The notes beneath the pieces were generated by a model that was given only the letters and a program-made list of their open reading frames with translations, ran no database searches and was not told the DNA's origin. DNA of 64,000 nt, from the IMG/VR virus record IMGVR_UViG_3300042361_000498; one strand, 5' to 3'. A program made the position numbers and the translations under genes. This DNA is from a virus (lineage: Duplodnaviria > Caudoviricetes). Below, one piece after another: positions 1 to 13,737 of the stretch (within the stretch, counting starts at the first letter, position 1; every line of letters starts with the position of its first letter).

Positions 1-142
1 TGTGTACGATGGAGGTAGTTAAATCCATCTACCCAGCTCACTCCTTTTCAGCTTCCAATAACCATAGAGCTGGTGAGAGGTATGAGAGACCTTTGGAGTA
101 TGTATGGAACGCATTTTTCTTTTAAAAATATTTGTTAAAAGG

Positions 143-180
143 CTTGTATATATCAGGAATTTTACTTACCTTTATTATAT
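143..180 (+). promoter_or_regulatory. Early-type Bacteroidota sigma-A-like promoter (TACCTTTA variant)
   Basis: CTTG 143-146, 20-nt spacer, TACCTTTA 167-174; near-identical copies at 644, 11802, 12076. Confidence 0.85.
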
Positions 181-305
181 GAGAGAGAGGTTGATTGCTT
201 TGATTGTGTTCTTAATGGTAACGGGTCACCCCTGCCGATTGAGGGTGTTAGCAATCTCTGTAAGACACCTCCCAAAAATTGAAATTGGTTTTAACCCCTT
301 ATAAT

Positions 306-506
306 ATGAATAACGAAGAAATTGCTGGTTTGAGTTTGGTTGAGTATGTGGACCTGTTAGAGGGTATGGCGGTGTTGAATGGTTCTACTCCTGCGAAGGT
401 GAACTTTGATTATTGTTTTTGGTATGGTGTGATTAGTGAGGATAGGTTTGAGGAGGCTAAGTGGGCATTGACAATTCGTAAGGTAGTTGAGAACTACTAC
501 GTGTAA
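306..506 (+). CDS. Hypothetical protein (66 aa)
   Basis: ATG at 306 downstream of promoter; the track start at 279 is probably an over-extension. Confidence 0.6.
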   Translation: MNNEEIAGLSLVEYVDLLEGMAVLNGSTPAKVNFDYCFWYGVISEDRFEEAKWALTIRKVVENYYV

Positions 507-541
507 GATATTAAGTGATTTGTAAACATAGTTTTTGGATT

Positions 542-572
542 AAACCCCTCTGGTACTGCTGGTGGGGTTTGT
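542..572 (+). terminator. Probable intrinsic terminator
   Basis: AAACCCC...GGGGTTT stem after the 306-506 ORF; U-tract is short. Confidence 0.45.
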
Positions 573-643
573 TGTATGCGGAGGCCCCGGCATATACCAT
601 TAAATAAATAATTGAAAAAAAAGCAAAAATAATTGTTAAAAGG

Positions 644-699
644 CTTGTTTATTTGCTAACTTTTACTTACCTTTATTATATGTGAGAGAGACAGTTCTC
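644..699 (+). promoter_or_regulatory. Early-type promoter plus 5' leader hairpin
   Basis: CTTG 644-647, N20, TACCTTTA 668-675, then TATGTGAGAGAGACAGTTCTC. Confidence 0.85.
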
Positions 700-719
700 C
701 ACTTTAAACCCCCCTTATT

Positions 720-1307
720 ATGGCTTCTTCTAAGAACACTACGAAATTTAAATTGATGGGTATCACTTTTGAATTACCCTCTGCTTGTTTAAGAACTACT
801 AACTACTGGGGAGAACCCCTTACTAACCCTACTATCACTATTGGACGTAAGGAAGTTCCTTTGATGTTCAAACAATTTATGAAAGTTAAATATCCTAATA
901 TGTTGGTATGGGGTAAATCCTCTACCTTCGCTAATGGTTCTTCTTCTGACTTGTATGCTTGTAACGCTGATGGTTCGGAGTTAGAATATGGTACTAAAGA
1001 GTACTATGATATTGCTTCTTTCTGTAATATGTTCAAAGGTGGACATTACGATGGGATGCATGATTGTTATGAGTACGCTGAGAATGGTAAGAGTGATAAC
1101 GGAACTGAATTAGAGTTCAACGCTAAGTATGTTTCCTTTAATGGTAAAGCCCCCTTCGGTACTTGGCCTGAAGCGAAACGTTCCCTAAGAGATATGCTAG
1201 ATGGTAAGTATGTGTGGGGTGTATTAACTTTAGAGAAAGCAATTGAGAAATTAAAAGGATATTCCTACACCGAAGCTACAATCGCTAAAGCAGTGGCTAG
1301 CTTGTAA
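720..1307 (+). CDS. Hypothetical protein, possibly LPD29-like (large polyvalent protein-associated domain)
   Basis: KSSTFANGSSSDLY...FKGGHYDGMHDCYEY resembles the LPD29 F-x-G-x-x-DGM-x-D-x-Y-x-Y pattern as recalled. Confidence 0.45.
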   Translation: MASSKNTTKFKLMGITFELPSACLRTTNYWGEPLTNPTITIGRKEVPLMFKQFMKVKYPNMLVWGKSSTFANGSSSDLYACNADGSELEYGTKEYYDIASFCNMFKGGHYDGMHDCYEYAENGKSDNGTELEFNAKYVSFNGKAPFGTWPEAKRSLRDMLDGKYVWGVLTLEKAIEKLKGYSYTEATIAKAVASL

Positions 1308-1348
1308 TCGGACACTAATAAAAATAAATTCATTTAAACTCCCTATAT

Positions 1349-1546
1349 ATGAAACACACTAATGGTTACTTACCCAAAATCGAATACCATACTAAACGAA
1401 TAAGTGAATTGTCTTTTTCACTTCAGTATGGACACCCTAAATACATAGGGGGACTGACCACCCGAATCACTAACCACATAAAGCGGTTAGAATATTTTGT
1501 AGCCCGTCACTGTGAGGAGAGCGGAGGCGTTGTGGGTGTGTTGTAG
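1349..1546 (+). CDS. Hypothetical protein
   Basis: ORF track; same strand as neighbours. Confidence 0.5.
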   Translation: MKHTNGYLPKIEYHTKRISELSFSLQYGHPKYIGGLTTRITNHIKRLEYFVARHCEESGGVVGVL

Positions 1547-1887
1547 TACCCGGCGGAGGCGGCTCGTAAATAGATTGGATTCAAAAGGTAGAATGTGGTG
1601 GTTTGTGGCACTAATGCGGAGGCGTTGAGTGGCACTAATAAGTAGGTGGTTATACTCCGAGGTGGGGGGGGACTGGTTACTTGTAAAAGGTCTTGCAACT
1701 TTTTTTTGGAAGGGGGCCCTAATACCTTTTCGCCCCGAGCCAGGTTTTTTTCTCTGGGGTTTACTTTTTGTGGGACAGAGTAGACTCTTGGTTTACCCCA
1801 AAGGGAGGGTTTTTAGATAGTACCTATCCAGCTTACTTGAGCTAACTTACTTATGTGGATTGATACAAAAATAAATTTACCTAAATG

Positions 1888-1919
1888 TTTGGAATTCTCA
1901 TTTATTTTACTTACCTTTA
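1888..1919 (+). promoter_or_regulatory. Early-type promoter
   Basis: TTTG 1888-1891, N20, TACCTTTA 1912-1919. Confidence 0.8.
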
Positions 1920-1966
1920 ATATGTGGTTGAGAGACAACAAACCTTCCCTCCCTCCACTCTATATT

Positions 1967-2188
1967 ATGAAAACCCCAAAGATTACTAAGAAAGAGTTGA
2001 TTGCTATCGCCCCCACCATTAACGCTGCAGAGTTCGAAGCCTTATGTGAGAAGAATGGTATCCACACTAGTTGGCTGGATGTAAGTGTAGAGGATTATAA
2101 TAGAGAATACTACAACGTTGAGATAATGGAGTATAACCTATTCGTTGCCTACTACAATGGTAAGTTAGAAGAGATTTACGACCTATAA
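1967..2188 (+). CDS. Hypothetical protein (MKTPKITKK...)
   Basis: Start moved to ATG 1967; the track start (1853) runs through the promoter. Confidence 0.65.
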   Translation: MKTPKITKKELIAIAPTINAAEFEALCEKNGIHTSWLDVSVEDYNREYYNVEIMEYNLFVAYYNGKLEEIYDL

Positions 2189-2200
2189 AAGATATAAGAT

Positions 2201-2452
2201 ATGAAAAATGGATTAGATTTGAAACCATCAACTATTAAACGTCTTTCCTTAGAACGTTACGTTGAGTTTATTGAAGAGAGAGCAAAAGCATTGGGTATCA
2301 CCCCTAAACGAGCCAATTCAGAATACTATATAAATGAAGGTGTGGTTTCGTATGATAGATATGAAGAGGCTATGGAGTTGATTCAAAAACGGATTAACGT
2401 TAGGAACTCAATGGCAATATCGGATTACATTGATTTTCAAATAGGAAGATAA
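2201..2452 (+). CDS. Hypothetical protein
   Basis: ORF track; tightly packed operon. Confidence 0.65.
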   Translation: MKNGLDLKPSTIKRLSLERYVEFIEERAKALGITPKRANSEYYINEGVVSYDRYEEAMELIQKRINVRNSMAISDYIDFQIGR

Positions 2453-2457
2453 AAGAT

Positions 2458-2577
2458 ATGAACAAAGAAATGGATTTTGTATTAAAGGTAAATGGACAAT
2501 ACCTCATACTATCATCCCTCCAATATGAGAAGTGGTTGATGTATGGGACATTGCCAAAAGAACGGATTAACAAATAG
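2458..2577 (+). CDS. Small hypothetical protein (39 aa, MNKEMDFVLKVNGQYL...)
   Basis: Read manually; exactly fills the gap between 2452 and 2580. Confidence 0.55.
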   Translation: MNKEMDFVLKVNGQYLILSSLQYEKWLMYGTLPKERINK

Positions 2578-2579
2578 AT

Positions 2580-2816
2580 ATGAATACATTAGAAATAGTT
2601 GGTTACTTCGCAATGGGTATGAGTGTACTCTCCTTTGCGTTCTCTAAACAAAAGCTGGTTCGGATAGTGAACTTCTTTGCATGTTTAGTGTGGGTTTGGT
2701 ATGGGTTCTTAATTCAGAATAACCCTACTATCATTGTAAACGTTATGGTATCGATGGTACACCTATATTGGTTTATTAATCGTTGGTGTAGAATCTCTAA
2801 ATTAAATCGTAAATAA
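2580..2816 (+). CDS. Small inner-membrane protein, YgjV/PQ-loop-like
   Basis: Three hydrophobic segments; GYFAMGMSVLSFAFSKQKLVRIVNFFACLVWVWYGFL pattern. Confidence 0.6.
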   Translation: MNTLEIVGYFAMGMSVLSFAFSKQKLVRIVNFFACLVWVWYGFLIQNNPTIIVNVMVSMVHLYWFINRWCRISKLNRK

Positions 2817-2819
2817 GAT

Positions 2820-2912
2820 ATGCATTATAAAGGAAGAAACAAAGATATCATAAAGGTGATTATATCCCTATTGGTATTGGGTATATTACTATGGATTGTT
2901 GAAATGATGTAA
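2820..2912 (+). CDS. Small membrane peptide (30 aa)
   Basis: MHYKGRNKDIIKVIISLLVLGILLWIVEMM read manually; fills the gap. Confidence 0.5.
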   Translation: MHYKGRNKDIIKVIISLLVLGILLWIVEMM

Positions 2913-2914
2913 GG

Positions 2915-3241
2915 ATGAAAGCACCTATAAATTTTAGTACTAAGTTGCACGGATACGAATTGGAGGTAGATGGGGAATCGTATATCCTTACTACAATCGC
3001 AAGTATGGATTCTTCTCTTTGGATAACTCCTATGAGAAATACGCCCGGCGCTATCATGCTACTATTCAATTGGAAGAGGGATGAATACGATATAGTGCCC
3101 ATTAGCCGTTTGAGTGGAAAATCGGATTATTCTCGTTCAAAGCAGGATTTGGGTTTCTCTCCTCATAAGTTCAGAACATTCGATTCGTTCATAGAGTGTA
3201 CTACATCCCTAATCAGAGACCATAAGGAATTATTTAATTAA
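2915..3241 (+). CDS. Array paralogue 1 (MKAPINF subfamily)
   Basis: Shares start, IML.F.W and P..F.TF..FI with the next two ORFs. Confidence 0.75.
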   Translation: MKAPINFSTKLHGYELEVDGESYILTTIASMDSSLWITPMRNTPGAIMLLFNWKRDEYDIVPISRLSGKSDYSRSKQDLGFSPHKFRTFDSFIECTTSLIRDHKELFN

Positions 3242-3244
3242 GAT

Positions 3245-3571
3245 ATGAAAGCACCAATCAATTTTGCTAAACGGATTAATGGATATAAAATGCCCGGCTC
3301 ATGGAGTAATTGCTATTTAGGGAATAACGAAGGGGATGACGATAAGGTATGGATATATACTAAAGATAAATCTACCAATTCAATTATGTTAGAGTTCCGA
3401 TGGGATGAGGAAGAATATAGGGTATGTATCGCAGGGAACGGAGATGGTACAAACTTTCACACCATTCTTAAACCTTGGCGATTTGACCCAAAATTCTTCA
3501 CATCCTTTGATACATTCATTGGATGGTTATTTGAGAAGTTGAATGAGTGGGGAAATCATTTTTATAATTAA
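3245..3571 (+). CDS. Array paralogue 2 (MKAPINF subfamily)
   Basis: VWIY..., IMLEFRW, GDGTNFHT, FDPKFFTSFDTFIGW. Confidence 0.75.
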   Translation: MKAPINFAKRINGYKMPGSWSNCYLGNNEGDDDKVWIYTKDKSTNSIMLEFRWDEEEYRVCIAGNGDGTNFHTILKPWRFDPKFFTSFDTFIGWLFEKLNEWGNHFYN

Positions 3572-3574
3572 GAT

Positions 3575-3898
3575 ATGAAAGGACCTCAAAACTTTACGGA
3601 ACGTGTTAAGGGATTCAAACTAGCTTCAGGGTTCTATAACTATCATTTGGATGCACACCGTCATAGGGATACCATAGTATGGATATATCCTCAATCCGAA
3701 TGCTCTAACGTGATTATGTTAGATTTCGATTGGAGTAACCATACCTATAAGGTGTGTGTAGTGAGGAGTGGAGATGGGGTGAACTTCCATACCACAGAAG
3801 GGAACTCTTTTAATCCTAAATACTTCAAAACATTTCCCCTATTCATAGAATGGTTATCTTTGAAGGTTGCTGATTGGTGGGATTATTTTGGATATTAA
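3575..3898 (+). CDS. Array paralogue 3 (MKGPQNF)
   Basis: VWIY, IMLDFDW, GDGVNFHT, FNPKYFKTF..FIEW, clearly homologous to 3245-3571. Confidence 0.75.
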   Translation: MKGPQNFTERVKGFKLASGFYNYHLDAHRHRDTIVWIYPQSECSNVIMLDFDWSNHTYKVCVVRSGDGVNFHTTEGNSFNPKYFKTFPLFIEWLSLKVADWWDYFGY

Positions 3899-3930
3899 TT
3901 TGGAAATACGGATTTTTTTACTTACCTTTA
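3899..3930 (+). promoter_or_regulatory. Early-type promoter heading the MLTI array
   Basis: TTTG 3899-3902, N20, TACCTTTA 3923-3930. Confidence 0.8.
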
Positions 3931-3949
3931 ATACATAATCAAAACCCCT

Positions 3950-4237
3950 ATGCTAACAATACACAATTACAAAAAGCTGGAACTACATAACATCGGAGTA
4001 GGTAAATGGTATGTGAGTGCTATCTATGAACAAAATAAAGAATACACTATAAACCTACGCTCACCCGAACACCAAGAGACTGTGTATCTAAGTAGGATTG
4101 CTAAAGTACTTCCCGATGGTAGGAAGGTGTACCAATACTATGATAGAAATGGTAGTGTTACTCTACGGAGTGTAACGATTGATTTCATACAAAACCCATC
4201 TAACCTATTACGTTCACTTAAAGGATTTTGTTTATAG
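3950..4237 (+). CDS. Array paralogue 4 (MLTIHNYKKL)
   Basis: MLTIxN start shared across array. Confidence 0.75.
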   Translation: MLTIHNYKKLELHNIGVGKWYVSAIYEQNKEYTINLRSPEHQETVYLSRIAKVLPDGRKVYQYYDRNGSVTLRSVTIDFIQNPSNLLRSLKGFCL

Positions 4238-4240
4238 GAT

Positions 4241-4615
4241 ATGCTAACAATACGAAACCCAACAAAGGGCGCAGACCCAGATACTGGAATCGTAATAGGT
4301 TCATTCAAATTGGTAAATGCTGGGTTGTACAATCGACCCGATGAAATAACGGGCATTTCGGATAACTACGATTATTACGCATTCTATTGGAGTTACAATG
4401 ATGAGCGTAGTAGGTTCAAATGCTTTTTAGAAAGAAAACCAATAGAGGGTACAACATCTATATACAACTTTGAGATTTACGATGAGAAAAAAGGTTTCAC
4501 TCATTATGGTAAAGCCGGTTTGATTTATGCTACATCTGTGGGTACAAATACTCACCTAAAAGATAGAATAGGGTTCTATACTTGGATGATAAATCAAATA
4601 GTAAAACATATGTAA
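4241..4615 (+). CDS. Array paralogue 5 (MLTIRNP)
   Basis: MLTIxN start; IGSFKLVNAGL...YAFYWS shared with 5214-5552. Confidence 0.75.
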   Translation: MLTIRNPTKGADPDTGIVIGSFKLVNAGLYNRPDEITGISDNYDYYAFYWSYNDERSRFKCFLERKPIEGTTSIYNFEIYDEKKGFTHYGKAGLIYATSVGTNTHLKDRIGFYTWMINQIVKHM

Positions 4616-4616
4616 T

Positions 4617-4907
4617 ATGCTAACAATTAAGAATTTTTATAAACTGTGTGGTAAACCCCTTGGAAGAGATGGTTGGGAGGTTGCTTTTTGTAGAGAAACG
4701 GATAATTGGTACGAAATTAAATTAGAACACCAACACCTATCATCTATAAAGGTATATTTGGAAAGGAAACCCACAAATACAAGTAATGGTAAGGTAGCGT
4801 ATATGTTTAGGAACGGAGATGGTGAACTTACACAATACGGAGTAACTCCGGATTGGATTTTGAATATGGGGAATATGTTAAAGGCATTAGATAGATTTAC
4901 ATGCTAA
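4617..4907 (+). CDS. Array paralogue 6 (MLTIKNFYKL)
   Basis: MLTIxN start, GW, Y-x-I, LERK pattern. Confidence 0.75.
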   Translation: MLTIKNFYKLCGKPLGRDGWEVAFCRETDNWYEIKLEHQHLSSIKVYLERKPTNTSNGKVAYMFRNGDGELTQYGVTPDWILNMGNMLKALDRFTC

Positions 4908-5209
4908 CAATTAAGAACTACGATAAGTTAGAGGGAAGATTATTAGAGTTTACCGCAGGGTGGGTAGTGGAATATTGTGAAGAGTGGGATTACACCTATA
5001 CAATTGGGGTACGACATCCCGCATATAAAATTACTGCTAATAGAAAGGAATTTCATTTAAGTAGAACACTTGAATCATTGGGTAATGGTGAATGGAGATA
5101 CTTCTTTTATTATGAGCATAAAAAAATTGAATTTTGTGTAGATGCGGAATACCTTTCGGATATGAATATGATGCTAGCAACCTTATGTAAAATAGTTAAT
5201 AAATATTAA
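4901..5209 (+). CDS. Array paralogue 7 (MLTIKNYDKL)
   Basis: MLTIxN start, GW, Y-x-I, LSR pattern. Confidence 0.75.
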   Translation: MLTIKNYDKLEGRLLEFTAGWVVEYCEEWDYTYTIGVRHPAYKITANRKEFHLSRTLESLGNGEWRYFFYYEHKKIEFCVDAEYLSDMNMMLATLCKIVNKY

Positions 5210-5213
5210 TAAC

Positions 5214-5552
5214 ATGCTAAGGATTAAAAATGTACGGAGAGATATAGGACATGATGATGGATACCAAATTGGTGGATTCAAATTAGTAGATGGGGGTTTA
5301 CACGGAGCTGTTTCCGGCAATTTGGAAAATCCATTCTATACATTCTTTTGGTCTATGGGGGATGCTAAGAGGAGGTTTAAGGTAGTGGTGAAGAGAGAGG
5401 CGGAAGATGAGGTGTACTACCATCTTTGGATTGAGGATTTGATTATGGGAATACGAATACACGATGTACGCGTTATGAGTAGTTTGTTTAAGGATAGGGA
5501 AAGGTTCTATAATTGGATGGTGGATAGGATTGTGGATTCACTATCAAATTAA
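5214..5552 (+). CDS. Array paralogue 8 (MLRIKNV)
   Basis: IGGFKLVDGGL...YTFFWS shared with 4241-4615. Confidence 0.75.
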   Translation: MLRIKNVRRDIGHDDGYQIGGFKLVDGGLHGAVSGNLENPFYTFFWSMGDAKRRFKVVVKREAEDEVYYHLWIEDLIMGIRIHDVRVMSSLFKDRERFYNWMVDRIVDSLSN

Positions 5553-5609
5553 ACCTTTACAAAAAAATCTTAAATTCGACCCGAATGAGAGTTGATGATA
5601 CTGAATATT

Positions 5610-5930
5610 ATGCTAACAATAACGAACTACAAAAAGATAAAGGATAATCAATTCAATTGTATGGGTACATTGTGGTTGATGGGTGAGATTATCGAAAGGG
5701 ATGATTACTACCAATTTGCATTTCTCCCGGAGACCAAAGGGGTGTTCGCCATACACAAATCACAATTCGTTAAGTTGTATCGGCAATTAAATGAGAATGG
5801 GTTTGAGTATGATATTGAAATTATGAATTCGATGGGAACCCGAAAGAAAATACATAATCAATACATAAAAAATCCTAAGCAATTACTTAATTGGATTAGT
5901 TCAAAATTTTTAGTATATGTTGAAGATTGA
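5610..5930 (+). CDS. Array paralogue 9 (MLTITNYKKI)
   Basis: Start moved to ATG 5610 to match the family start. Confidence 0.75.
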   Translation: MLTITNYKKIKDNQFNCMGTLWLMGEIIERDDYYQFAFLPETKGVFAIHKSQFVKLYRQLNENGFEYDIEIMNSMGTRKKIHNQYIKNPKQLLNWISSKFLVYVED

Positions 5931-6246
5931 AAACATAGATAAGTTTAAGAGTATGTTGTGTAGTGGTAAAGTTGCACACAAAGTAATTCTAAATGGGATA
6001 TGGTATATATTTTATTTTAGGGTAAGTGAGTTTAGCCCAAAGGTTCAAAAGGTGTATAGGTTAATTGGAGATGATGTTGAGATTTGGTTAGATAGAACTC
6101 CCAACGAATCAGGTAAATATGAAATGTTTGTATCGGCTTGGAAAAACGAAGTAAAGATTTTGGTTGAGTGGGATGATTTACAAAGACCATATCTACTTGC
6201 AACAACTATGGCGAAGTTATTAGAAAAATTACAAAGGGTATGCTAA
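5917..6246 (+). CDS. Array paralogue 10 (MLKIENIDKF)
   Basis: Variant family start; LDR motif; C-terminal amphipathic helix. Confidence 0.65.
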   Translation: MLKIENIDKFKSMLCSGKVAHKVILNGIWYIFYFRVSEFSPKVQKVYRLIGDDVEIWLDRTPNESGKYEMFVSAWKNEVKILVEWDDLQRPYLLATTMAKLLEKLQRVC

Positions 6247-6599
6247 CGATAAAGAATTTCAAATCCTCATTACTTAATAGTTGGTGGGGTGGTTGGAAGA
6301 TTACCGATGTGTTGGAGGATACATACAAATTTGATATTGATTCGAACCTCATTGGGTGTAAACAATATTCGGTTCAATTTCATTATTACCGAGCGGATGG
6401 GTTGGGTGGACCAAAGAATGTGGGTAGGTTAATATTGGAGAGAGAAACCGATGAGTTTTTAGGAGGACAGTATCGATATAAAATATACTTAAATCAAAAG
6501 ATGATTAATGGGGGTGGAGTATTCAAAACTGCGTTAGAAGATAAAAAGGCATTTATAGAATCGGTAGTAGGTGTAATAGATTACGAATTAAAAAAATAA
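6240..6599 (+). CDS. Array paralogue 11 (MLTIKNF)
   Basis: MLTIxN start, GW, LER motif. Confidence 0.75.
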   Translation: MLTIKNFKSSLLNSWWGGWKITDVLEDTYKFDIDSNLIGCKQYSVQFHYYRADGLGGPKNVGRLILERETDEFLGGQYRYKIYLNQKMINGGGVFKTALEDKKAFIESVVGVIDYELKK

Positions 6600-6604
6600 T
6601 AGAT

Positions 6605-6865
6605 ATGAAAAGATTTAATGATTTAGAGTTTAACCTACACCCTATGGGAAGTGGTGTTCAAGCACTTATAGAGTTTGAGAATAGTTATGGTGCATCCGTA
6701 GTTAGAACTCCTTATACCTATGGAGGTGGTGAGGGTTTGTATGAGTTGGCAGTATTCAAAGATGGCGAAATCCATTACGATAATCCGATTGCCGATGGAG
6801 ATGTTAAGGGATACCTAACTGAAGAAGGTGTAACTGCTTTATTAGCTGAAATCCAATTATTATAA
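6605..6865 (+). CDS. Conserved phage hypothetical protein (unrelated to the array)
   Basis: FENSYGASVV...YGGGEGLYELAV motif, recalled as widespread in phage hypotheticals. Confidence 0.7.
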   Translation: MKRFNDLEFNLHPMGSGVQALIEFENSYGASVVRTPYTYGGGEGLYELAVFKDGEIHYDNPIADGDVKGYLTEEGVTALLAEIQLL

Positions 6866-7245
6866 TGCTAACAATACTAAACTTTGAGTATCAACTAAAT
6901 TCTTTCAAAACAAAAGTTAATAGCTTTAGGGGTTGGTACATAATGGAGGTGGAAGAAACGCGTAATGATTACTATTCTATAATCTTACAAAAGAATGTCC
7001 CAACTGATTTTGATTGGGTTGAGATACGATTGGGTATGGAGGCGGATAAAGAATTCCCATATGATAGGGATTCGGATGATGTGTATAAACTACAATTCGT
7101 ACATAAAGATGGTTCAGTTATATACGAACATTGGTTGGGACGTAAATGGTTAAAGAAAACAACCGCATATGAATTTATGGAAAGAGTTGGTGCTATTATT
7201 GAAAACTATGTAGAGAATCATCCAAATCTAAAATTACCATTCTAA
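6865..7245 (+). CDS. Array paralogue 12 (MLTILNF)
   Basis: MLTIxN start, GWY, YYSI. Confidence 0.7.
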   Translation: MLTILNFEYQLNSFKTKVNSFRGWYIMEVEETRNDYYSIILQKNVPTDFDWVEIRLGMEADKEFPYDRDSDDVYKLQFVHKDGSVIYEHWLGRKWLKKTTAYEFMERVGAIIENYVENHPNLKLPF

Positions 7246-7532
7246 TGAAACTAACTATAAAGAACTACGATAAGATTATAGGTTGTGTAGTGGGTAAATA
7301 CCAAATTACACAAGTCCGGCAGTTGAGTAAGTTATATGAAATTGTGTTTAAGGGTAAGACCCGTAGAGACCATAAGATTGTAACCATATATAGAGAACCG
7401 CTATCCGAATACGAAAAGCAGGTTTACAAAGTAGTATGTGATGGTGAGTACACAACCATTTGGAATATCACATTAAAGGATAAGATTGCCACTTTACAAT
7501 ATCTTTCATATTGGTTGGAAAATACTTTCTAA
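7245..7532 (+). CDS. Array paralogue 13 (MKLTIKNYDKI)
   Basis: LTIKNY.K..G start, IYR motif. Confidence 0.7.
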   Translation: MKLTIKNYDKIIGCVVGKYQITQVRQLSKLYEIVFKGKTRRDHKIVTIYREPLSEYEKQVYKVVCDGEYTTIWNITLKDKIATLQYLSYWLENTF

Positions 7533-7536
7533 ATAA

Positions 7537-7568
7537 TTAGGATATATCAATTTTTTTACTTACCTTTA
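7537..7568 (+). promoter_or_regulatory. Early-type promoter heading the RNA-repair operon
   Basis: TTAG 7537-7540, N20, TACCTTTA 7561-7568. Confidence 0.75.
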
Positions 7569-7593
7569 TCCTATAATTAAAACCCCCAATAGT

Positions 7594-8253
7594 ATGAAGA
7601 TTATTTTGAATAAAGGTCAAAAGTTGTGGTTCACTTCAGATACCCACTTTAATCACGCAAATATTTGTAGAGGCACTACCGAATGGGATAAGAGCAAACC
7701 GAATCACTTTAGAGATTTTGATTCTTTGGGTGAGATGAATGATAGGTTAGTTGCTGGTATCAATACCGTAGTTGGGGAGAATGATATCCTAATCCATTTA
7801 GGTGACTGGTCTTTCGGTGGGTTTGATTCCATTAGAGAGTTCCGTAGCAGATTGAATTGCAAGAACATCCATTTAGTATTAGGAAACCACGACCATCACA
7901 TTGGAAGAAATAAAGATGGGGTGCAGGATTGTTTCATTAGTGTAAACCATTTAGTTAATTTGGTTGTTAAGTGGAATGTTGGAACTCTAAATCAAAAGGA
8001 AGCACAATTTGTTTTGATGCACTTTCCAATTGCTAGTTGGGAAAATTTAGGTAGGGGTGTTATTCACTTACACGGACACGTTCACTTACCTAACCATCGT
8101 AGAGTTGGTAATGGTAAAGTTATGGATGTGGGTGTAGATGGAAATGGTTTAGACCCTATTAGTTTAGAAGAGATATTAAAGATTATGGAGAAACAACCAA
8201 TAGGTAGTATGATGCCAAATGACCACCACACTATGGTTGAAAATTATAGATAA
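7594..8253 (+). CDS. Calcineurin-like metallophosphoesterase
   Basis: SDTHFNH, HLGD, GNHD, HGHVH motifs. Confidence 0.9.
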   Translation: MKIILNKGQKLWFTSDTHFNHANICRGTTEWDKSKPNHFRDFDSLGEMNDRLVAGINTVVGENDILIHLGDWSFGGFDSIREFRSRLNCKNIHLVLGNHDHHIGRNKDGVQDCFISVNHLVNLVVKWNVGTLNQKEAQFVLMHFPIASWENLGRGVIHLHGHVHLPNHRRVGNGKVMDVGVDGNGLDPISLEEILKIMEKQPIGSMMPNDHHTMVENYR

Positions 8254-8256
8254 AAT

Positions 8257-8457
8257 ATGGAAAAGTTTAATTATGTGATTGCACGAATGTGGTTTAAGGA
8301 TAGTAATCAATTAAACTGCTACACATATCACAATACAGTATTCTATGGTACTATGGAAGAAGCCGAAGAACAATTAGAGTTCATCAAAGGTAGAGCCGAT
8401 ACGAATATAGCAGATGAGTTTTGTATTTACAAAGTAGAAGATAAACCAATAAAGTAA
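8257..8457 (+). CDS. Hypothetical protein
   Basis: ORF track. Confidence 0.6.
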   Translation: MEKFNYVIARMWFKDSNQLNCYTYHNTVFYGTMEEAEEQLEFIKGRADTNIADEFCIYKVEDKPIK

Positions 8458-8873
8458 TGATACCAAAAATATTAACATTAGTAAGAGGATTGCCAGGTAG
8501 TGGCAAATCAACATTCGCCAATTGGATTTGGAATGAGTATGCAATATGTGAAGCTGATAAGTTCTTCTATGATAAAGAAGGTAACTATAACTTTGATGGT
8601 TCTAAATTAAGGCAAGCACATGAATGGTGTAGAAACCAAGTTGAGACTCGTATGAAAGATAACGAAGTCAATCCTCAATTTTATCCTGAAATTGTAGTAT
8701 CAAACACATTTACGCAAGAGTGGGAAATGGAAGCATACTATAAGTTAGCAGAACAATACGGATATAAAGTATTCAGTATTATTGTAGAAAATAGACATGG
8801 TGGTGTAAATGAGCACGGAGTACCTGCTGAAAAGTTAGAACAAATGAAAAATCGTTTTGAAGTAAAGTTATGA
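8457..8873 (+). CDS. P-loop kinase, polynucleotide-kinase (AAA_33)-like
   Basis: LVRGLPGSGKST Walker A; EADKFF; VVSNTF; next to an RNA ligase. Confidence 0.8.
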   Translation: MIPKILTLVRGLPGSGKSTFANWIWNEYAICEADKFFYDKEGNYNFDGSKLRQAHEWCRNQVETRMKDNEVNPQFYPEIVVSNTFTQEWEMEAYYKLAEQYGYKVFSIIVENRHGGVNEHGVPAEKLEQMKNRFEVKL

Positions 8874-9601
8874 TAGATAATATAGAGCAAATTAAAGGAT
8901 TACTTAACTTTGAGAAAGAAGGAGATTTCTATATGCTCTATATCTTTAAGCGTAAGAAAGACCAAACAACTGATAAAGCTAATCATCAATCGGTTCGTAC
9001 AATCAAATCATATTGTATTGAGAGTGTAGAACATTTAGAACAACGATACGATGAGATTAAACAACTTTGTGAGATGTTTAAGGCAAGGGCATATATTCAT
9101 ATCAACAAACAAAAACATAAGGATGTTGGTATGCAAATGATTGTTGATATTGTCAATCGCATTCAATCGGGTCAAATCAATCAAAAGCACGTATTTGATT
9201 CGGTGGTTGGACAAGTTAAGATGCACGAAAAAAGATGGATTGTAGATATTGACACAAAGGATGAAAGTTTGATTGGTGGTGTAATAAACACAATTGACCA
9301 ATGTAAACCTATTAAATTTAGAGCAATAGTACATACATACAAAGGAGATGGTACTATTGAAAAATCACTAGATATTGTTACAAAGGTGATTAAAAAAATC
9401 CCAACTAAATCAGGCTATCATTTAATTACTGAAAGATTTGATGTTATGGAATTTAAGAAACAATATGCTGATATCGATATCCAAAAGAAAAACCCAACAT
9501 TATTATATTACCCTGAAAGTTTAGGTACAAATACAAATAAAATAGCTTATCAAATACTACAAAACTCCACATATGGAAAAATGGGTGGTTTGGGAGAATA
9601 A
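8870..9601 (+). CDS. Conserved phage hypothetical protein
   Basis: RKKD..., ARAYI, WIVDID, PTKSGYHLIT motifs (primase/polymerase-like TKSGYH is weak). Confidence 0.55.
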   Translation: MIDNIEQIKGLLNFEKEGDFYMLYIFKRKKDQTTDKANHQSVRTIKSYCIESVEHLEQRYDEIKQLCEMFKARAYIHINKQKHKDVGMQMIVDIVNRIQSGQINQKHVFDSVVGQVKMHEKRWIVDIDTKDESLIGGVINTIDQCKPIKFRAIVHTYKGDGTIEKSLDIVTKVIKKIPTKSGYHLITERFDVMEFKKQYADIDIQKKNPTLLYYPESLGTNTNKIAYQILQNSTYGKMGGLGE

Positions 9602-9616
9602 ATAAAAAATTGTAAT

Positions 9617-10783
9617 ATGAAATACGATTTAACATTAATAGGTGATTACATATCCAAAGGATTGGTGATTAAACAAAATCATCCTACACTTCCATTGGCT
9701 ATATACAACTATTCACGTGAATGCCAATACAATGGTATGTGGGATGATATTACTTTGAATTGCAGAGGATTAGTTTTGGATAACGAAGGTAATGTTGTTG
9801 CTAAACCTTTTCCAAAGTTCTTTAACTACGAAGAGCACAAACCAGAGGATATCCCAAATGAATACTTTGAGGTTTATGAAAAGATGGATGGTTCGTTAGG
9901 TATATTCTTTTACTATGAGGAAGAGTTGAGTGATGAAAGAAGATATAACATATGGTTTAATAATAATTACGAAACCGGTATGGAAAGGTTCTTTGACCCA
10001 AACAACTTACCTAACTTTGATGACCCATACTATGAACCAACACCAAAAATAAAAGGTGAATGGCATATGACAACTCGTGGTTCATTTACTTCCGAACAAG
10101 CAATCAAAGGTATGGAGATTGCAAATAAGTACAACTACAATAAGATATGCGTACCTGGCTACACATATCTTTTTGAAATAATTTATCCTGAAAATCGTAT
10201 CGTTGTAGATTATGGTAAAGAAGAGAGATTGGTATTGTTGGGCGTTATGAATAGAAGAGGTGAAGAGTTTCCATATGAAGAGCTTGTGGAAGAAGGTTGG
10301 GATATCGTAATGAAGTATAAGACTTGGGGAGAAGATTGGGAAACTTTGAAAAAAGAAATATCCAAAGATAATGAAGGATATGTAATTCGTTTTTCAGGCG
10401 GTATGCGAATGAAGATTAAAGGTGATGAGTATGTTCGTCTACATAGAATCTTAACTAACTTTTCCACCAAAGATATATGGGAACTATTAAGAAATAACGA
10501 ACAGTTAGAACCATTTTTGGATAGAGTACCTGATGAGTTTGATGCTTGGGTGAAAGAAGTTGTTAGGGATTTACAAACTGAATTTGATACAATTAAAAAT
10601 AAAATTGAAATAGAATTCAGAGAGTTAATAGATAAGAAAGAGTTTGCTGATAAGATTGCAGATAATCCTAATAGGTCTTTATTATTCAAAAGGTTGGATT
10701 CATATTCGCCGCAATTTGATGAAATGATTTGGAAATTGTTAAAGCCAAAGTATGAAAAACCTTTCAAAAAAGATGAAAAATAA
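9617..10783 (+). CDS. rnlA: RNA ligase 1 (T4 Rnl1-like)
   Basis: CRGLV, KPFPKFFN, EKMDGSLG (motif I), TRGSF, FEIIYP, EGYVIRF, RMKIKGDEY. Confidence 0.9.
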   Translation: MKYDLTLIGDYISKGLVIKQNHPTLPLAIYNYSRECQYNGMWDDITLNCRGLVLDNEGNVVAKPFPKFFNYEEHKPEDIPNEYFEVYEKMDGSLGIFFYYEEELSDERRYNIWFNNNYETGMERFFDPNNLPNFDDPYYEPTPKIKGEWHMTTRGSFTSEQAIKGMEIANKYNYNKICVPGYTYLFEIIYPENRIVVDYGKEERLVLLGVMNRRGEEFPYEELVEEGWDIVMKYKTWGEDWETLKKEISKDNEGYVIRFSGGMRMKIKGDEYVRLHRILTNFSTKDIWELLRNNEQLEPFLDRVPDEFDAWVKEVVRDLQTEFDTIKNKIEIEFRELIDKKEFADKIADNPNRSLLFKRLDSYSPQFDEMIWKLLKPKYEKPFKKDEK

Positions 10784-10794
10784 TTGATGAAAAG

Positions 10795-10826
10795 CTTGTG
10801 TATATCAAATCTTTTACTTACCTTTA
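10795..10826 (+). promoter_or_regulatory. Early-type promoter
   Basis: CTTG 10795-10798, N20, TACCTTTA 10819-10826. Confidence 0.8.
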
Positions 10827-10926
10827 CTATGTACTAAGAGATACACATTATGAAAGTTTTAGTTTTTGATTCGATTTGGTTTGGTTTGAGAGTGTTAAAA
10901 ATGTTAGGATACTAAACAATAGACAT

Positions 10927-11109
10927 ATGAAATGGTTTTACAGCGAAATGGGTAGTGTGAATAAGAAGACTGGGAAGTATAAGCACTATAAAGTAACAGT
11001 TGAAGATTGGAAGATTACGGGTTGTAACTGCGAAGCTAGAGATTTTCGTAAATATACACCCTGTAAACATATGATTTCAATCCATAATAAGTTAGGACAT
11101 AGTTTATAA
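10927..11109 (+). CDS. SWIM zinc-finger protein
   Basis: GCNCEARDFRKYTPCKH = CxC-xn-CKH; start moved to ATG 10927. Confidence 0.75.
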   Translation: MKWFYSEMGSVNKKTGKYKHYKVTVEDWKITGCNCEARDFRKYTPCKHMISIHNKLGHSL

Positions 11110-11127
11110 AAAATAATTAAGAAAAAG

Positions 11128-11159
11128 CTTGACATTATCAATTTTTTTACATACCTTTA
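11128..11159 (+). promoter_or_regulatory. Early-type promoter
   Basis: CTTG 11128-11131, N20, TACCTTTA 11152-11159. Confidence 0.8.
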
Positions 11160-11182
11160 TTAAGTAATAAAAGATAAACAAT

Positions 11183-11449
11183 ATGAACATCGAATTTAAA
11201 AAACCCAACAAAAATCATCCTCAACCATTTATTCGTCATTCGAACTTTTCGATTATGAAAGCGGCAACTGAAAAGTATCCCGAAATGGTTGAAATCCTAA
11301 GAGGACCTTCTTATGCTAGGAAATTCTTTGGTAAGAAATTCATAAACATTGAATCCGCTATCAAAAGTGTAGATTTGATATGTGCAGAACGTATGATTGC
11401 AAAGCAGTCAATGGTTGAAACCGAGTCAATAGAGAACGCTTGGTGTTAA
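11183..11449 (+). CDS. Hypothetical protein
   Basis: ORF track; directly downstream of promoter. Confidence 0.65.
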   Translation: MNIEFKKPNKNHPQPFIRHSNFSIMKAATEKYPEMVEILRGPSYARKFFGKKFINIESAIKSVDLICAERMIAKQSMVETESIENAWC

Positions 11450-11473
11450 ACCTTAAAAAAAACTTAAAGAATA

Positions 11474-11505
11474 TTAGGATTTTTGATATTTTTTTTGTAT
11501 ATTTG
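11474..11505 (+). promoter_or_regulatory. Canonical Bacteroidota sigma-A promoter
   Basis: TTAG 11474-11477, N20, TATATTTG 11498-11505. Confidence 0.75.
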
Positions 11506-11541
11506 TATAATTATAATTAATAACCTTAAACAAAAAGTAGA

Positions 11542-11706
11542 ATGAAAAAATTATTAGCATTAGCGTTTATCGCATCTGGATTAGTATTAGCAGCATGTGG
11601 TGAATCAAAACAAGAAGTTGCAAGTGATTCTTTAGCAGTTGATACAATTGCAGTTGATAGTGTAGCAGCTGATTCGGTAGCAGCAGACACAGCAGTTGCA
11701 AAGTAA
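11542..11706 (+). CDS. Small acidic lipoprotein (54 aa), PG1828-family-like; absent from the ORF track
   Basis: MKKLLALAFIASGLVLAAC lipobox, then DSLAVDTIAVDSVAADSVAADT repeats; own promoter and terminator. Confidence 0.8.
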   Translation: MKKLLALAFIASGLVLAACGESKQEVASDSLAVDTIAVDSVAADSVAADTAVAK

Positions 11707-11733
11707 GAATTAAATTTTGATTGTGAATAATGG

Positions 11734-11765
11734 AAAGGGGTAGACTTTTAGTTTATCCCTTTTTT
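11734..11765 (+). terminator. Intrinsic terminator
   Basis: AAAGGGGTAGAC-TTTTA-GTTTATCCCTTT followed by T-tract. Confidence 0.75.
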
Positions 11766-11801
11766 GTGTCTAAAAATAATTTAAAAATATTTTGGTAAAA
11801 G

Positions 11802-11860
11802 CTTGTTTATATCAATTTTTTTACTTACCTTTATTATATGTGAGAGAGACAGTTCTCTTC
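11802..11860 (+). promoter_or_regulatory. Early-type promoter plus leader hairpin
   Basis: CTTG, N20, TACCTTTA 11826-11833, then TATGTGAGAGAGACAGTTCTC identical to the 644 copy. Confidence 0.85.
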
Positions 11861-11879
11861 CTTTTAACCCCACATTGAT

Positions 11880-12071
11880 ATGAATTATCCAAAGAAACTT
11901 AATGAGTATGTTCACTTCATTACTATCATCTATGGTGGTACAATGCGTAAAGAAGGTATCATAGAATGTATTATGGCTAACACTATTGGTTACGCTAATG
12001 GATTAGTATCCCGTACTACTTATAGAGGAGCCGAAAAACATTTTGTAAATTTATTAAAAAATATTTCGTAA
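11880..12071 (+). CDS. Hypothetical protein, paralogue of 12423-12614
   Basis: KE.II.CI..N...YANGLVS...Y..AEK..V..LK.IS shared. Confidence 0.7.
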   Translation: MNYPKKLNEYVHFITIIYGGTMRKEGIIECIMANTIGYANGLVSRTTYRGAEKHFVNLLKNIS

Positions 12072-12075
12072 AAGG

Positions 12076-12135
12076 CTTGTTTAATTCAGGAATTTTACTT
12101 ACCTTTATTATATGGGAGTGAGGGACGTTCCTCCT
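12076..12135 (+). promoter_or_regulatory. Early-type promoter plus leader hairpin
   Basis: CTTG, N20, TACCTTTA 12100-12107, then GAGGGAC/GTTCCTC hairpin. Confidence 0.85.
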
Positions 12136-12156
12136 CCATTAACCCCCCCCTTTGTT

Positions 12157-12384
12157 ATGAATATTAGAAATTATTATGTGAATGAGTTCCCATCAGATGA
12201 GTTAGGTTTAGAGATTGACCCAAAAGCCAACTTCGAATCTTTATGGCTCGCAATTCGTGGTGATATGGTCTATGAATACATTGGTGTTTCTGATAGTGTG
12301 ATACGAGAGAGATTGTTTGAAAAGTTTTCCGAACTCACCGGTCATACTTACGATTATATTTACCAAGAATGGTTAAACGCCTAA
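12157..12384 (+). CDS. Hypothetical protein
   Basis: Start moved to ATG 12157 (MNIRNYYV). Confidence 0.65.
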   Translation: MNIRNYYVNEFPSDELGLEIDPKANFESLWLAIRGDMVYEYIGVSDSVIRERLFEKFSELTGHTYDYIYQEWLNA

Positions 12385-12422
12385 TAATTAAATTTTAATA
12401 TTAATCTTAAACCCCTTATATT

Positions 12423-12614
12423 ATGACAATTCATTTCAAAGATTTAGATTCGTACATTAAACATTTGACATTGGGAGTTTCCTTTTTAGGAAAAGAAACC
12501 ATCATTAATTGTATTACAAAAAATGATGTGATTTATGCAAACGGACTTGTTTCCGAAAAGATTTACAAAAAAGCTGAAAAGTATTTAGTTGAAAACCTTA
12601 AATTTATTTCTTAA
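12423..12614 (+). CDS. Hypothetical protein, paralogue of 11880-12071
   Basis: YANGLVS motif shared. Confidence 0.7.
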   Translation: MTIHFKDLDSYIKHLTLGVSFLGKETIINCITKNDVIYANGLVSEKIYKKAEKYLVENLKFIS

Positions 12615-12640
12615 TTATTATTTCACTAAAATAAAATGTT

Positions 12641-12787
12641 ATGCAAGAAGTACCTAGATTACCTTTTACAACAATGGATTACATTGTGCATGGATTTCAT
12701 TTAGTATGTTTACTTTCAATCATAGTATTGGGAGCAGCATATATTATTCACGATTACAAAACTTTTAAACCCAAAGACAGATTTTAA
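12641..12787 (+). CDS. Small membrane protein (48 aa)
   Basis: MQEVPRLPFTTMDYIVHGFHLVCLLSIIVLGAAYII..., read manually. Confidence 0.5.
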   Translation: MQEVPRLPFTTMDYIVHGFHLVCLLSIIVLGAAYIIHDYKTFKPKDRF

Positions 12788-12788
12788 T

Positions 12789-13037
12789 ATGGTAGCATAT
12801 AAGCAATTTATAACAATGTGCATTGGACTTGTTGTGGGAGTAATTGCAATAAGTATATTGGCATTTGTACCCAGCAAATCGGATAAAGCAAAGTACACTA
12901 TTACATCGGAAAACGGAAAAACTTATTACGCAAATACATTTCGTATGTATGGTAAGGGAGTTATGTTTGATGATATTTATGGGAACACAGTCATCGTTCA
13001 AGGTGATTTAGAAATTAAATGTAAAAAAGTAGAATGA
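12789..13037 (+). CDS. Membrane-anchored hypothetical protein
   Basis: N-terminal TM helix. Confidence 0.6.
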   Translation: MVAYKQFITMCIGLVVGVIAISILAFVPSKSDKAKYTITSENGKTYYANTFRMYGKGVMFDDIYGNTVIVQGDLEIKCKKVE

Positions 13038-13333: not shown

Positions 13334-13476
13334 TAGAATTTGTAAAGCACGCATTGGGATTATGTGGTGAACATTGGCATCCTAACCTATTCACAATAAT
13401 AGCAAGCGGATTTGGATTATTACCTGCATTTGAATATCTTAAATACAAATACTTTAAGAATGGAACAAACAAATAG
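13330..13476 (+). CDS. Small hypothetical protein (48 aa)
   Basis: MIEFVKHALGLCGEHWHPNLFTII..., read manually; overlaps both neighbours. Confidence 0.55.
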   Translation: MIEFVKHALGLCGEHWHPNLFTIIASGFGLLPAFEYLKYKYFKNGTNK

Positions 13477-13726
13477 TGAAGTAGAAGTATTGGAAAAAAT
13501 TGAGAAGCAACATCAAATTATAGTTTACAATGATAATGTAAATACGTTTGAGCATGTCATTATGTGTTTAATGATTATGTGTGGACACGAAATGGAACAG
13601 GCAGAACAATGTGCAATGATAATTCACTACAAAGGAAAGTGTGGAGTTAAATCAGGCACTATGGATGAATTGATTCCTATTGCCGAAGCATTAGATAGAG
13701 CAGGATTACACTTACAAATCGTTTAA
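13460..13726 (+). CDS. clpS: ATP-dependent Clp protease adaptor ClpS
   Basis: IVYNDNVNTFEHVI..L...CGH...QAEQCAMIIHYKGK; start moved to ATG 13460. Confidence 0.9.
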   Translation: MEQTNSEVEVLEKIEKQHQIIVYNDNVNTFEHVIMCLMIMCGHEMEQAEQCAMIIHYKGKCGVKSGTMDELIPIAEALDRAGLHLQIV

Positions 13727-13737
13727 TTCATATCTTT

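Follow-up and report, generated by a model that had tools for sequence, protein, structure and literature searches.

Positions 2915 to 7532 of a 64,000-nucleotide stretch of the virus record IMGVR_UViG_3300042361_000498 (Duplodnaviria; Caudoviricetes) are filled by a tandem array of 13 small open reading frames (ORFs) of 95 to 126 amino acids, all on the plus strand and interrupted by one unrelated ORF (6605-6865). The stretch, referred to below as the window, corresponds to bases 24730-88729 of the 133,285-bp record, which is estimated to be about 70% complete. Sequence comparison indicates that the array is an old, diversified multigene family with lineage-specific gain and loss, and we infer, at a probability of roughly 45%, that its products form a repertoire of early, soluble, single-domain proteins that bind host proteins in the service of host takeover or anti-defence. 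What is new here is a widespread phage protein family, or pair of families, which is structurally unmatched in the solved and predicted libraries searched and is laid out as an old multigene array within a hyperplastic early region.

As a preliminary description of this DNA had reported, three of the ORFs begin with MKAPINF or MKGPQNF and ten with M(K)L[TRK]IxN, and ATGCTAA opens eight of the latter; the two sets are called here the MKAPINF and the MLTIxN genes. A scan of the complete record (133 kb) for M(K)L[TRK]IxN gives 12 matches, which lie in two clusters and in family genes only, and the pattern is therefore not a product of chance. A hidden Markov model (HMM) built from 111 outside representatives, each less than 40% identical to any member in this genome, matched all ten MLTIxN genes of the window with E values of 4e-25 to 1.2e-9; the next ORF scored E 0.44, which is noise. 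Because this model of outside sequences matches all ten, the MLTIxN genes are, on sequence grounds, one family across their full length. The MKAPINF genes had no match to the model, and ORF 6605-6865 had none to it or to the family HMMs generally. The genes of the array are as follows; E values for MLTIxN genes refer to the outside-sequence model.

2915-3241, plus strand: MKAPINF-family gene A1, 108 amino acids
3245-3571, plus strand: MKAPINF-family gene A2, 108 amino acids, modelled member
3575-3898, plus strand: MKAPINF-family gene A3, 107 amino acids, start MKGPQNF, 41% identical to A2
3950-4237, plus strand: MLTIxN-family gene, 95 amino acids (E 3.6e-20)
4241-4615, plus strand: MLTIxN-family gene, 124 amino acids, in a subgroup with 5214 (E 1.3e-10)
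4617-4907, plus strand: MLTIxN-family gene, 96 amino acids, modelled member (E 4.2e-25)
4901-5209, plus strand: MLTIxN-family gene, 102 amino acids (E 9.9e-20)
5214-5552, plus strand: MLTIxN-family gene, 112 amino acids, start MLRIKN (E 8.1e-10)
5610-5930, plus strand: MLTIxN-family gene, 106 amino acids, its ATG within ORF 5592-5930 (E 8.4e-15)
5917-6246, plus strand: MLTIxN-family gene, 109 amino acids, start MLKIEN (E 6.8e-10)
6240-6599, plus strand: MLTIxN-family gene, 119 amino acids, in four of four related arrays compared (E 1.2e-9)
6605-6865, plus strand: unrelated acidic gene, 86 amino acids, isoelectric point (pI) 4.3 (phrog_4074, E 2.5e-11)
6865-7245, plus strand: MLTIxN-family gene, 126 amino acids (E 2.4e-11)
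7245-7532, plus strand: MLTIxN-family gene, 95 amino acids, start MKLTIKN with the motif shifted by one residue (E 3.5e-16)

When only the window sequences were compared with each other (BLAST and HHalign), the genes, named by their first positions, fell into groups A (2915, 3245, 3575), B (3950, 4617, 4901, 5610, 7245), C (4241, 5214) and D (5917, 6240, 6865), with B weakly linked to C and D and group A linked to none. The two closer pairs singled out by the preliminary description are real, with 33% identity over 121 amino acids between 4241 and 5214 (E 8e-15) and 41% over 106 amino acids between 3245 and 3575 (E 4.5e-31).

A search with the MLTIxN alignment returned 177 proteins in a 90%-clustered collection, and the family comprises 269 clusters at E <= 1e-3 among 1.84 billion representatives at 50% identity. 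Nearly all matches are 90 to 125 amino acids long, carry MLTI[KQE]N at residue 1 and align over profile positions 1 to approximately 100. Two giant proteins among the representative matches (P0202 and P0231) aligned with only a hairpin-sized piece of the profile and were rejected as spurious. No fused forms of at least 225 amino acids were found in the search, which is weak evidence. The record itself holds a second cluster of four MLTIxN members approximately 8 kb upstream of the array and outside the window (record G000:C1 19565-20975, equivalent to L004:5566-6976; E <= 1.1e-6), which begin MLTIQNINK, MKLTIKNID, MEKIHIQNP and MKKIKIENP. The first of these genes may carry a fused N-terminal extension of 46 residues, a diverged fifth member is possible at record positions 18498-18932 (HMM E 2e-4), and the cluster is conserved in the related contig L009 (3850-5482). 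The family had not been recognized in the preliminary description, and searches of Pfam, PHROGs, NCBIfam, PADLOC and the sequences of the PDB gave no match either; the PDB profile search produced one marginal and nearly full-length hit, to 9ome_A, a "Lipoprotein" (E 0.093). Neither blastn (distant) nor tblastn found a match among 50,697 deposited phage genomes, so no cultured relative has the family at that sensitivity.

The bodies of the proteins carry a recognizable core. In an alignment of 154 sequences, the near-invariant MLTIxN positions are L2, I4 (99%), N6 (96%), Y32 (99%), R50 (93%) and Y62 (94%), and strong conservation is found at K9, L/I10, W20 (72%), V/I22, E27, F/I34, L36, V/I46, L48 (79%), L/F64, V76, I/L81, F/L87, L88 and L91. 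This alignment and both of the structure models described below bear out the previously proposed body pattern of GW, Y-x-h, L-x-R, Y and a C-terminal helix. Within the strands, conserved positions alternate with positions of less than 1 bit of information, and one face of the sheet and the loops are for this reason essentially free, with the opposite face presumably packing on the helices and the N-terminal segment. Such a distribution would be expected of a scaffold with variable surfaces. The pI of family members spans 5.2 to 9.4, on which ground DNA mimicry, with its uniformly acidic proteins, was rejected.

The MKAPINF genes have 63 relatives of 105 to 112 amino acids, all hypothetical, and make up a tight sequence family of their own; none of the three MKAPINF proteins matched Pfam at E <= 1. 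The ratio of nonsynonymous to synonymous polymorphism (pN/pS) of these genes between strains is 0.2 to 0.4, so they are real coding genes. The same values give no sign of positive selection between strains, for which the MLTIxN block has too few changes to measure.

AlphaFold2 was used to model one member of each family, 4617 from group B (predicted local distance difference test [pLDDT] 91.6, predicted template modeling score [pTM] 0.81) and A2 at 3245 (pLDDT 86.4, pTM 0.79). The 4617 model has a helix at residues 7-10, strands at 20-27, 31-38, 42-54, 60-65 and 71-76, and helices at 78-81 and 84-92; the 3245 model has a helix at 7-11, five strands, and helices at 82-85 and 88-106. The elements follow one order in both, with coil over residues 1-6, five strands flanked on either side by a one-turn helix (the first from residue 7), and a last helix at the C terminus; the models predict for both families an N-terminal segment with Asn-6, a one-turn helix, a five-stranded antiparallel meander sheet, a second one-turn helix and an amphipathic C-terminal helix. 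Both families consist of stand-alone soluble proteins of about 100 residues.

Foldseek searches of the PDB, the AlphaFold DB clusters, the Swiss-Prot models and BFVD returned nothing at E <= 0.001, and all query template modeling scores were 0.61 or lower. When the nearest PDB neighbors of the two models were ranked among 48,161 chains, 15 were common to the two top-50 lists and 5 to the two top-10 lists, where two random lists of 50 would be expected to share approximately 0.05 entries. The common neighbors include NdhV, Atg10, Mediator subunits, the Ctf19-Mcm21 RWD domains, E2 enzymes and Spa15. Top neighbors of both models are Atg10 (4gsk_Y), Ctf19-Mcm21 (5mu3_D and 3zxu_C), Mediator (7emf_Q and 5n9j_A) and NdhV (6l7o_V), in alignments that span the whole model. 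With the RWD and UBC (E2)-like alpha+beta sandwiches the models have in common a helix at the N terminus, a meander of antiparallel strands and helices at the C-terminal end. E2 enzymes have a catalytic Cys and an HPN motif; unlike them, the 154-sequence alignment has no conserved Cys, His or HPN column. A likeness to the plasmid anti-SOS protein PsiB (PF06290; 3nct_A) scored below the meaningful level of both tools, and the MKAPINF proteins have no Pfam match to it.

We consider it probable that the two families share one fold. The profile-profile comparison of the MKAPINF family with the deep MLTIxN family gave a weak local match in HHalign (P 0.002, probability 14%) over the C-terminal 26 columns, which cover the last strand and helix and pair F-x-P-x-x-F-x-T-F-D-x-F-I with V-T-A-D-W-h-x-D-M-D-N-h-h. 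In global mode, the alignment was colinear over 96 columns (P 0.008, probability 2%) and paired M1 with M1, N6 with N6, the K-h-x-G turn, every strand, and Y58 with Y62; the MKAPINF residue aligned with R50 is Phe. No overlap is visible between the two models in their Foldseek and Atlas lists. The second-nearest Atlas cluster of the MKAPINF protein by language-model features and the best structural Atlas match of the MLTIxN protein are both 102 amino acids long, have 57 members and belong to Uroviricota, which we take as a lead only. The earlier proposal of one fold with variable surfaces has support. It holds for the ten MLTIxN genes, which are one family with free strand positions and loops, and it is consistent with the element order and overlapping neighbors of the MKAPINF model; as a claim of one fold across both families it meets the weakness of the profile-profile homology. 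The proposed joint motif M-x-x-h-x-N-(F/Y)-x-K-h-x-G fits the MKAPINF genes only with a one-residue gap.

Related arrays were sought with a degenerate DNA pattern for MLTI[KQE]NYxK, which yielded 38 loci; family genes were present at 11, and the others were chance matches. Contigs identical or 97% identical to the window are found in four NCBI metagenome assemblies. Elsewhere, the array has 15 copies in L026 and 13 in L037, both on contigs unrelated to the window phage, and 8 plus one MKAPINF gene in L042, 8 plus one in L009, and 4 plus one in L013. The genomic address is kept in L009 and L010 (178 and 148 kb), L013 and L042 (195 kb), where a single MKAPINF gene opens the array and a kinase gene and an Rnl1 ligase gene follow it; an MKAPINF gene opens the array in the window and at three related loci. 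In all four loci compared, there is a core of constant order made up of the MKAPINF gene, a 4241-type gene, a 6240-type gene, the 6605 gene and a 6865-type gene. The 6605 gene is always placed between the 6240-type and 6865-type genes, and its orthologs at this position in L009, L013 and L042 are 57 to 63% identical. The 3950, 4617, 4901, 5214, 5610, 5917 and 7245 types have been gained, lost or moved between relatives.

The highest identity within an array is 45% in any contig (L026) and 41% in the window, whereas for most members a far closer relative is found on some other contig. The 4241 gene, for example, is 80% identical to its ortholog in L009 (65% in L013 and 60% in L042), compared with 32% within its own array. 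Because no pair within an array exceeds 45% and orthologs are closer than paralogs, the family is old rather than recently amplified. The preliminary description had spoken of a gene accordion; in the sense of a recent amplification this is not supported by the identities above, although copy number does vary (4 to 15). Accordions of the poxvirus type are similar in being tandem multicopy viral loci whose copy number differs by lineage, but they consist of recent, near-identical copies, and in that respect the array is unlike them.

Between 97%-identical strains, divergence is focused in the MKAPINF genes and the ligase gene in a mosaic pattern, and no stretch diverges more than A1 (2915-3241), where mismatches reach 43 per 100 nt. 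In two of these strains (L005:3164-3424 and L008:4134-4394), the 4617 ortholog is frameshifted by a 1-nt insertion at window position 4656, and an ORF of 86 amino acids without the MLTIKN start is called; either the copy is decaying or the assembly is in error. Two endonuclease-like ORFs were noted in L009. One of 158 amino acids (11391-11867) lies in the middle of the array and has subthreshold matches to T5orf172/MUG113 (GIY-YIG-like), and a subthreshold HNH-type ORF with a helix-turn-helix motif (5485-5934) follows the upstream cluster. They may reflect homing-endonuclease traffic in the variable region.

The starts of the MLTIxN genes show more conservation as DNA than their amino acids demand. 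MLTI is encoded by the first 12 nt (ATGCTAACAATA). Among 60 family starts, drawn from this record plus eight further contigs, 53 have CTA as the second codon, although CTA makes up 10% of Leu codons in the long ORFs of the record and 18% in the family bodies. Of the 48 Thr codons at the third position, 40 are ACA, compared with 42% genome-wide, and codon 4 is ATA in 49 of 60, compared with 39%. Since the proteins are otherwise 20 to 35% identical, randomized synonymous sites would be expected. The peptide motif, for its part, is not bound to the ATG; it remains intact after shifts of 1 to 3 residues (MKLTIKN, MEKIHIQN, MKKIKIEN) and behind extensions of 40 to 75 residues. The codon bias at the start, taken together with the survival of the motif through shifts and extensions, suggests that the gene start seems to be constrained at both the protein and the nucleotide level. 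A homology block between the window (4901-5230) and L009 (11871-12212) spans exactly one gene start to the next. It is conceivable, if on balance doubtful, that ATGCTAACAATA also acts as nucleic acid, either as a shared operator or reinitiation signal by which the entire repertoire would be translated in concert, or as a microhomology "linker" for the gain, loss and reordering of cassettes. If the linker explanation were true, the array would be an integron-like cassette store with its recombination site inside coding sequence. Organisms of the Bacteroidota largely lack Shine-Dalgarno-led initiation. The codon-level conservation of the first four codons is in any case a separate puzzle about translation or cassette recombination.

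A promoter-like repeat is scattered through the surrounding region. The 16-nt motif TTTTACTTACCTTTAT with a conserved upstream AAAAGGCTTG occurs nine times in the window against 0.48 expected, always on the plus strand and within 160-12108; the whole record has 11 copies, all on the plus strand and between 4.9 and 36.8 kb. Between the repeat and the ATG there is often a GAGAGAG...CTCTC hairpin, together with a C-rich leader (AACCCC). The copies are as follows.

160, 661, 1905, 3916, 7554, 10812, 11145, 11819 and 12093, plus strand: promoter-like repeat, AAAAGGCTTG-N(14-16)-TTTTACTTACCTTTAT
1905-1920, plus strand: TTTTACTTACCTTTAA, the copy nearest upstream of the MKAPINF genes, with three small genes between
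3916-3931, plus strand: the sole internal copy, located 19 nt before the start codon at 3950
7554-7569, plus strand: copy just past the end of the array, heading the next unit

These copies place the array in a promoter-rich and probably early region. The claim that all of its genes sit behind strong early-type promoters does not hold, however, as one repeat lies inside the array and most genes are 1 to 5 nt apart or overlap by 1 to 14 nt. Spacing within the array ranges from +5 nt to a 14-nt overlap, except for two gaps of 51 and 57 nt, and a 98-nt gap precedes the first gene. Given the single internal repeat and the tight spacing, the array would comprise three or four operon-like transcription units, not 13, with starts predicted near 1920, 3931 and 7569. 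A sigma-70 scan gave counts below the shuffled expectation, and a simple scan found no terminator-like hairpins in the intergenic gaps of the array. The region resembles the hyperplastic regions of T4-type phages, which are rich in promoter-early stem-loop (PeSL) elements (PMC2839356, PMC4122927), and the repeat itself is similar to the PeSL cassettes of those phages, although it does not flank single genes of the array.

Downstream of the array, the window encodes the following genes.

7594-8253, plus strand: phosphoesterase (calcineurin-like; Pfam Metallophos; PHROG 547)
8457-8873, plus strand: P-loop kinase (Pfam AAA_33, polynucleotide-kinase-like; PHROGs 2071/505)
8870-9601, plus strand: unknown gene, 243 amino acids (phrog_14949)
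9617-10783, plus strand: Rnl1-type RNA ligase (Pfam RNA_lig_T4_1; PHROG 562)

Judged by these domain matches, the genes at 7594-10783 together are a probable RNA-repair (healing-and-sealing) module like Pnk and Rnl1 of phage T4, which serve in tRNA repair as a counter-defence. The kinase and ligase come after the array in L009, L013 and L042 too. The record has 30 to 39% G+C and almost all of its genes on the plus strand, and it codes for a helicase, PhoH, thymidylate synthase and baseplate wedge proteins. It also carries a gene for a SusC-like TonB-dependent receptor of 1,086 amino acids with CarboxypepD_reg, Plug and beta-barrel domains (15692-18952, minus strand), which is unusual phage cargo and points to a host among the Bacteroidota. 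The virus appears to be a large uncultured water phage. A thymidylate-kinase/AAA_28-like gene (15112-15651, minus strand) adjoins the receptor gene.

Several features favor the idea that the array supplies early, cytoplasmic binders of host proteins. The products are small stand-alone domains without a catalytic signature, they combine a conserved scaffold with variable surfaces and charge, many old paralogs are kept in tandem, their genes belong to the early region and adjoin what is probably an RNA-repair module for counter-defence, and the family is restricted to viral contigs. Under this model, each paralog would be produced early in infection, and its variable surface would bind a different host protein stoichiometrically, be it a takeover target or a component of defence; the role of the conserved core and termini would be only to hold the scaffold together. 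The large and lineage-variable repertoire would then mirror the range of host targets or host strains met. To our knowledge, large aquatic Bacteroidota phages lack a genetic system, and hardly any of their early genes are annotated. With its fixed genomic address next to an RNA-repair module and its clear split between conserved scaffold and variable surface, the family offers an easily synthesized candidate set for new inhibitors of Bacteroidota defence systems or host-takeover factors.

Other results weigh against the binder model. No match to known anti-defence or defence families was found in the annotated PHROG, Pfam and PADLOC models. There is also no sign of an unusually fast arms race in the MLTIxN genes, and the MKAPINF genes alone are a strain-level hot spot. 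This follows from the near-unchanged state of the MLTIxN block between the 97%-identical strains, which show 6 differences in 3860-9690 (5.8 kb), and from the ordinary divergence of orthologs. Array genes are 35 to 80% identical to their L009 orthologs and flanking small genes 84 to 94%, but the divergence of the array genes is not above that of the adjoining kinase (53%) and ligase (55%); the phosphoesterase is at 73%. Lastly, the near-invariant N6 (96%), Y32 (99%), R50 (93%) and Y62 (94%) could mark a shared functional site; such a site would be more in keeping with one ligand or partner for all than with targets that differ throughout.

In a different model, which we consider unlikely, the proteins are adaptors or modulators of one machine. 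A conserved face formed by the N-terminal segment, Y32, R50 and Y62 would bind a shared host or phage partner, with RNA polymerase, a protease or the adjoining RNA-repair enzymes as candidates, and the variable face would set specificity. However, the conserved residues are in phase with the hydrophobic strand positions and so may be structural, R50 is not retained in the MKAPINF family, and no fusion or covariation ties the family to a partner.

It is less likely again that these are injected internal proteins, whose invariant N terminus would be a capsid-targeting signal and which, once packed into the head, would enter the cell together with the DNA and block host defences immediately. In T4, IPI, IPII and IPIII are small, diverse anti-restriction binders with a capsid-targeting sequence, and IPI* is a compact alpha+beta protein (PMC3012670). 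The array proteins are similar in being small and diverse with the first 10 to 12 residues best conserved; the extreme N terminus is the most conserved segment of the MLTIxN family, and IPI* offers a likeness in size and compact alpha+beta build. Unlike the T4 proteins, though, they have bodies that are homologous over their full length, and no (L/I)-x-E site follows the motif. The first 12 residues have no conserved Glu or (L/I)-x-E cleavage site, and no conserved Glu occurs at MLTIxN positions 1-19, the first being E27 in strand 1, so that a leader with a prohead-protease site was not found. Residues 1-10 have a mean AlphaFold pLDDT of 86 (packing on the rest of the domain is not visible from the output), some members have the motif behind an extension of 40 to 75 residues, and the genes lie amid early-type promoter repeats in the early region, far from structural genes.

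We also think it improbable that the array is made up of dispensable cassettes in a hyperplastic region, retained chiefly through the dynamics of recombination and with hardly any role, or none, directed at the host. In favor of this, relatives have gained, lost and reordered members, the 4617 ortholog carries its 1-nt insertion in two 97%-identical strains, endonuclease-like ORFs (subthreshold HNH and T5orf172) lie in or beside the L009 arrays, and the conserved 12-nt gene start could be microhomology. T4-type hyperplastic regions, in which PeSL elements accompany ORFan cassettes, behave likewise (Arbiol et al. 2010, PMC2839356; Comeau et al. 2014, PMC4122927). As in the array, these regions hold small early genes of unknown function between conserved modules with a repeated promoter element interspersed, genes are inserted, deleted and reordered between relatives, and strains close to each other are mosaics. 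The array differs from them in that its genes belong to one or two protein families rather than to unrelated ORFans. The repeated PeSL element is approximately 70 to 115 bp long (PMC2839356, PMC4122927), whereas the sequence repeated at gene boundaries here is the first 12 coding nucleotides; the 4.6-kb array has one promoter repeat inside it, its genes are not individually flanked, a simple scan found no terminator-type stem-loop, and the host is of the Bacteroidota, not the Proteobacteria. Retention by recombination is difficult to reconcile with the age of the paralogs, whose frames are still open and whose confident fold and core residues persist across 269 clusters, with a core set in order in four of four loci compared, and with pN/pS below 0.5 where measurable.

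The remaining alternative, by which unrelated ORFs would share nothing but a translation-initiation signal at their start, is consistent with the conservation of the first 12 nt beyond amino-acid need. It is highly improbable, however; the preliminary description had itself named it as a case that would overturn its proposal, and it is contradicted for the ten MLTIxN genes by their full-length homology and by the persistence of the motif when shifted or placed behind long extensions.

Several minor features of the flanks were also recorded. A gene for a ClpS-like (PF02617) N-degron adaptor of 88 amino acids lies a few kilobases downstream of the array at approximately 13464-13730 (placed from L005:11990-12256). 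Upstream, the noncoding gap at 1546-1860 (approximately 310 nt) is G-rich with G8 and T8 runs amid a region of 33% G+C; it had no Rfam match, as was the case for the whole of window positions 1-13000, and its folding was no better than that of shuffled sequences (z 0.51). The hydrophobic protein of 78 amino acids encoded at 2580-2816, directly before the MKAPINF genes, has subthreshold matches to small inner-membrane and PQ-loop-like families and is conserved at 90% in L009 and L013. Two small proteins, at 279-506 (75 amino acids) and 2201-2452 (83 amino acids), are apparent paralogs with a common ...YV(D/E)...E...YDRYEEA-type pattern and match one and the same L042 ORF. The 2201 protein is 94% identical in L009, far above the conservation of the array genes.

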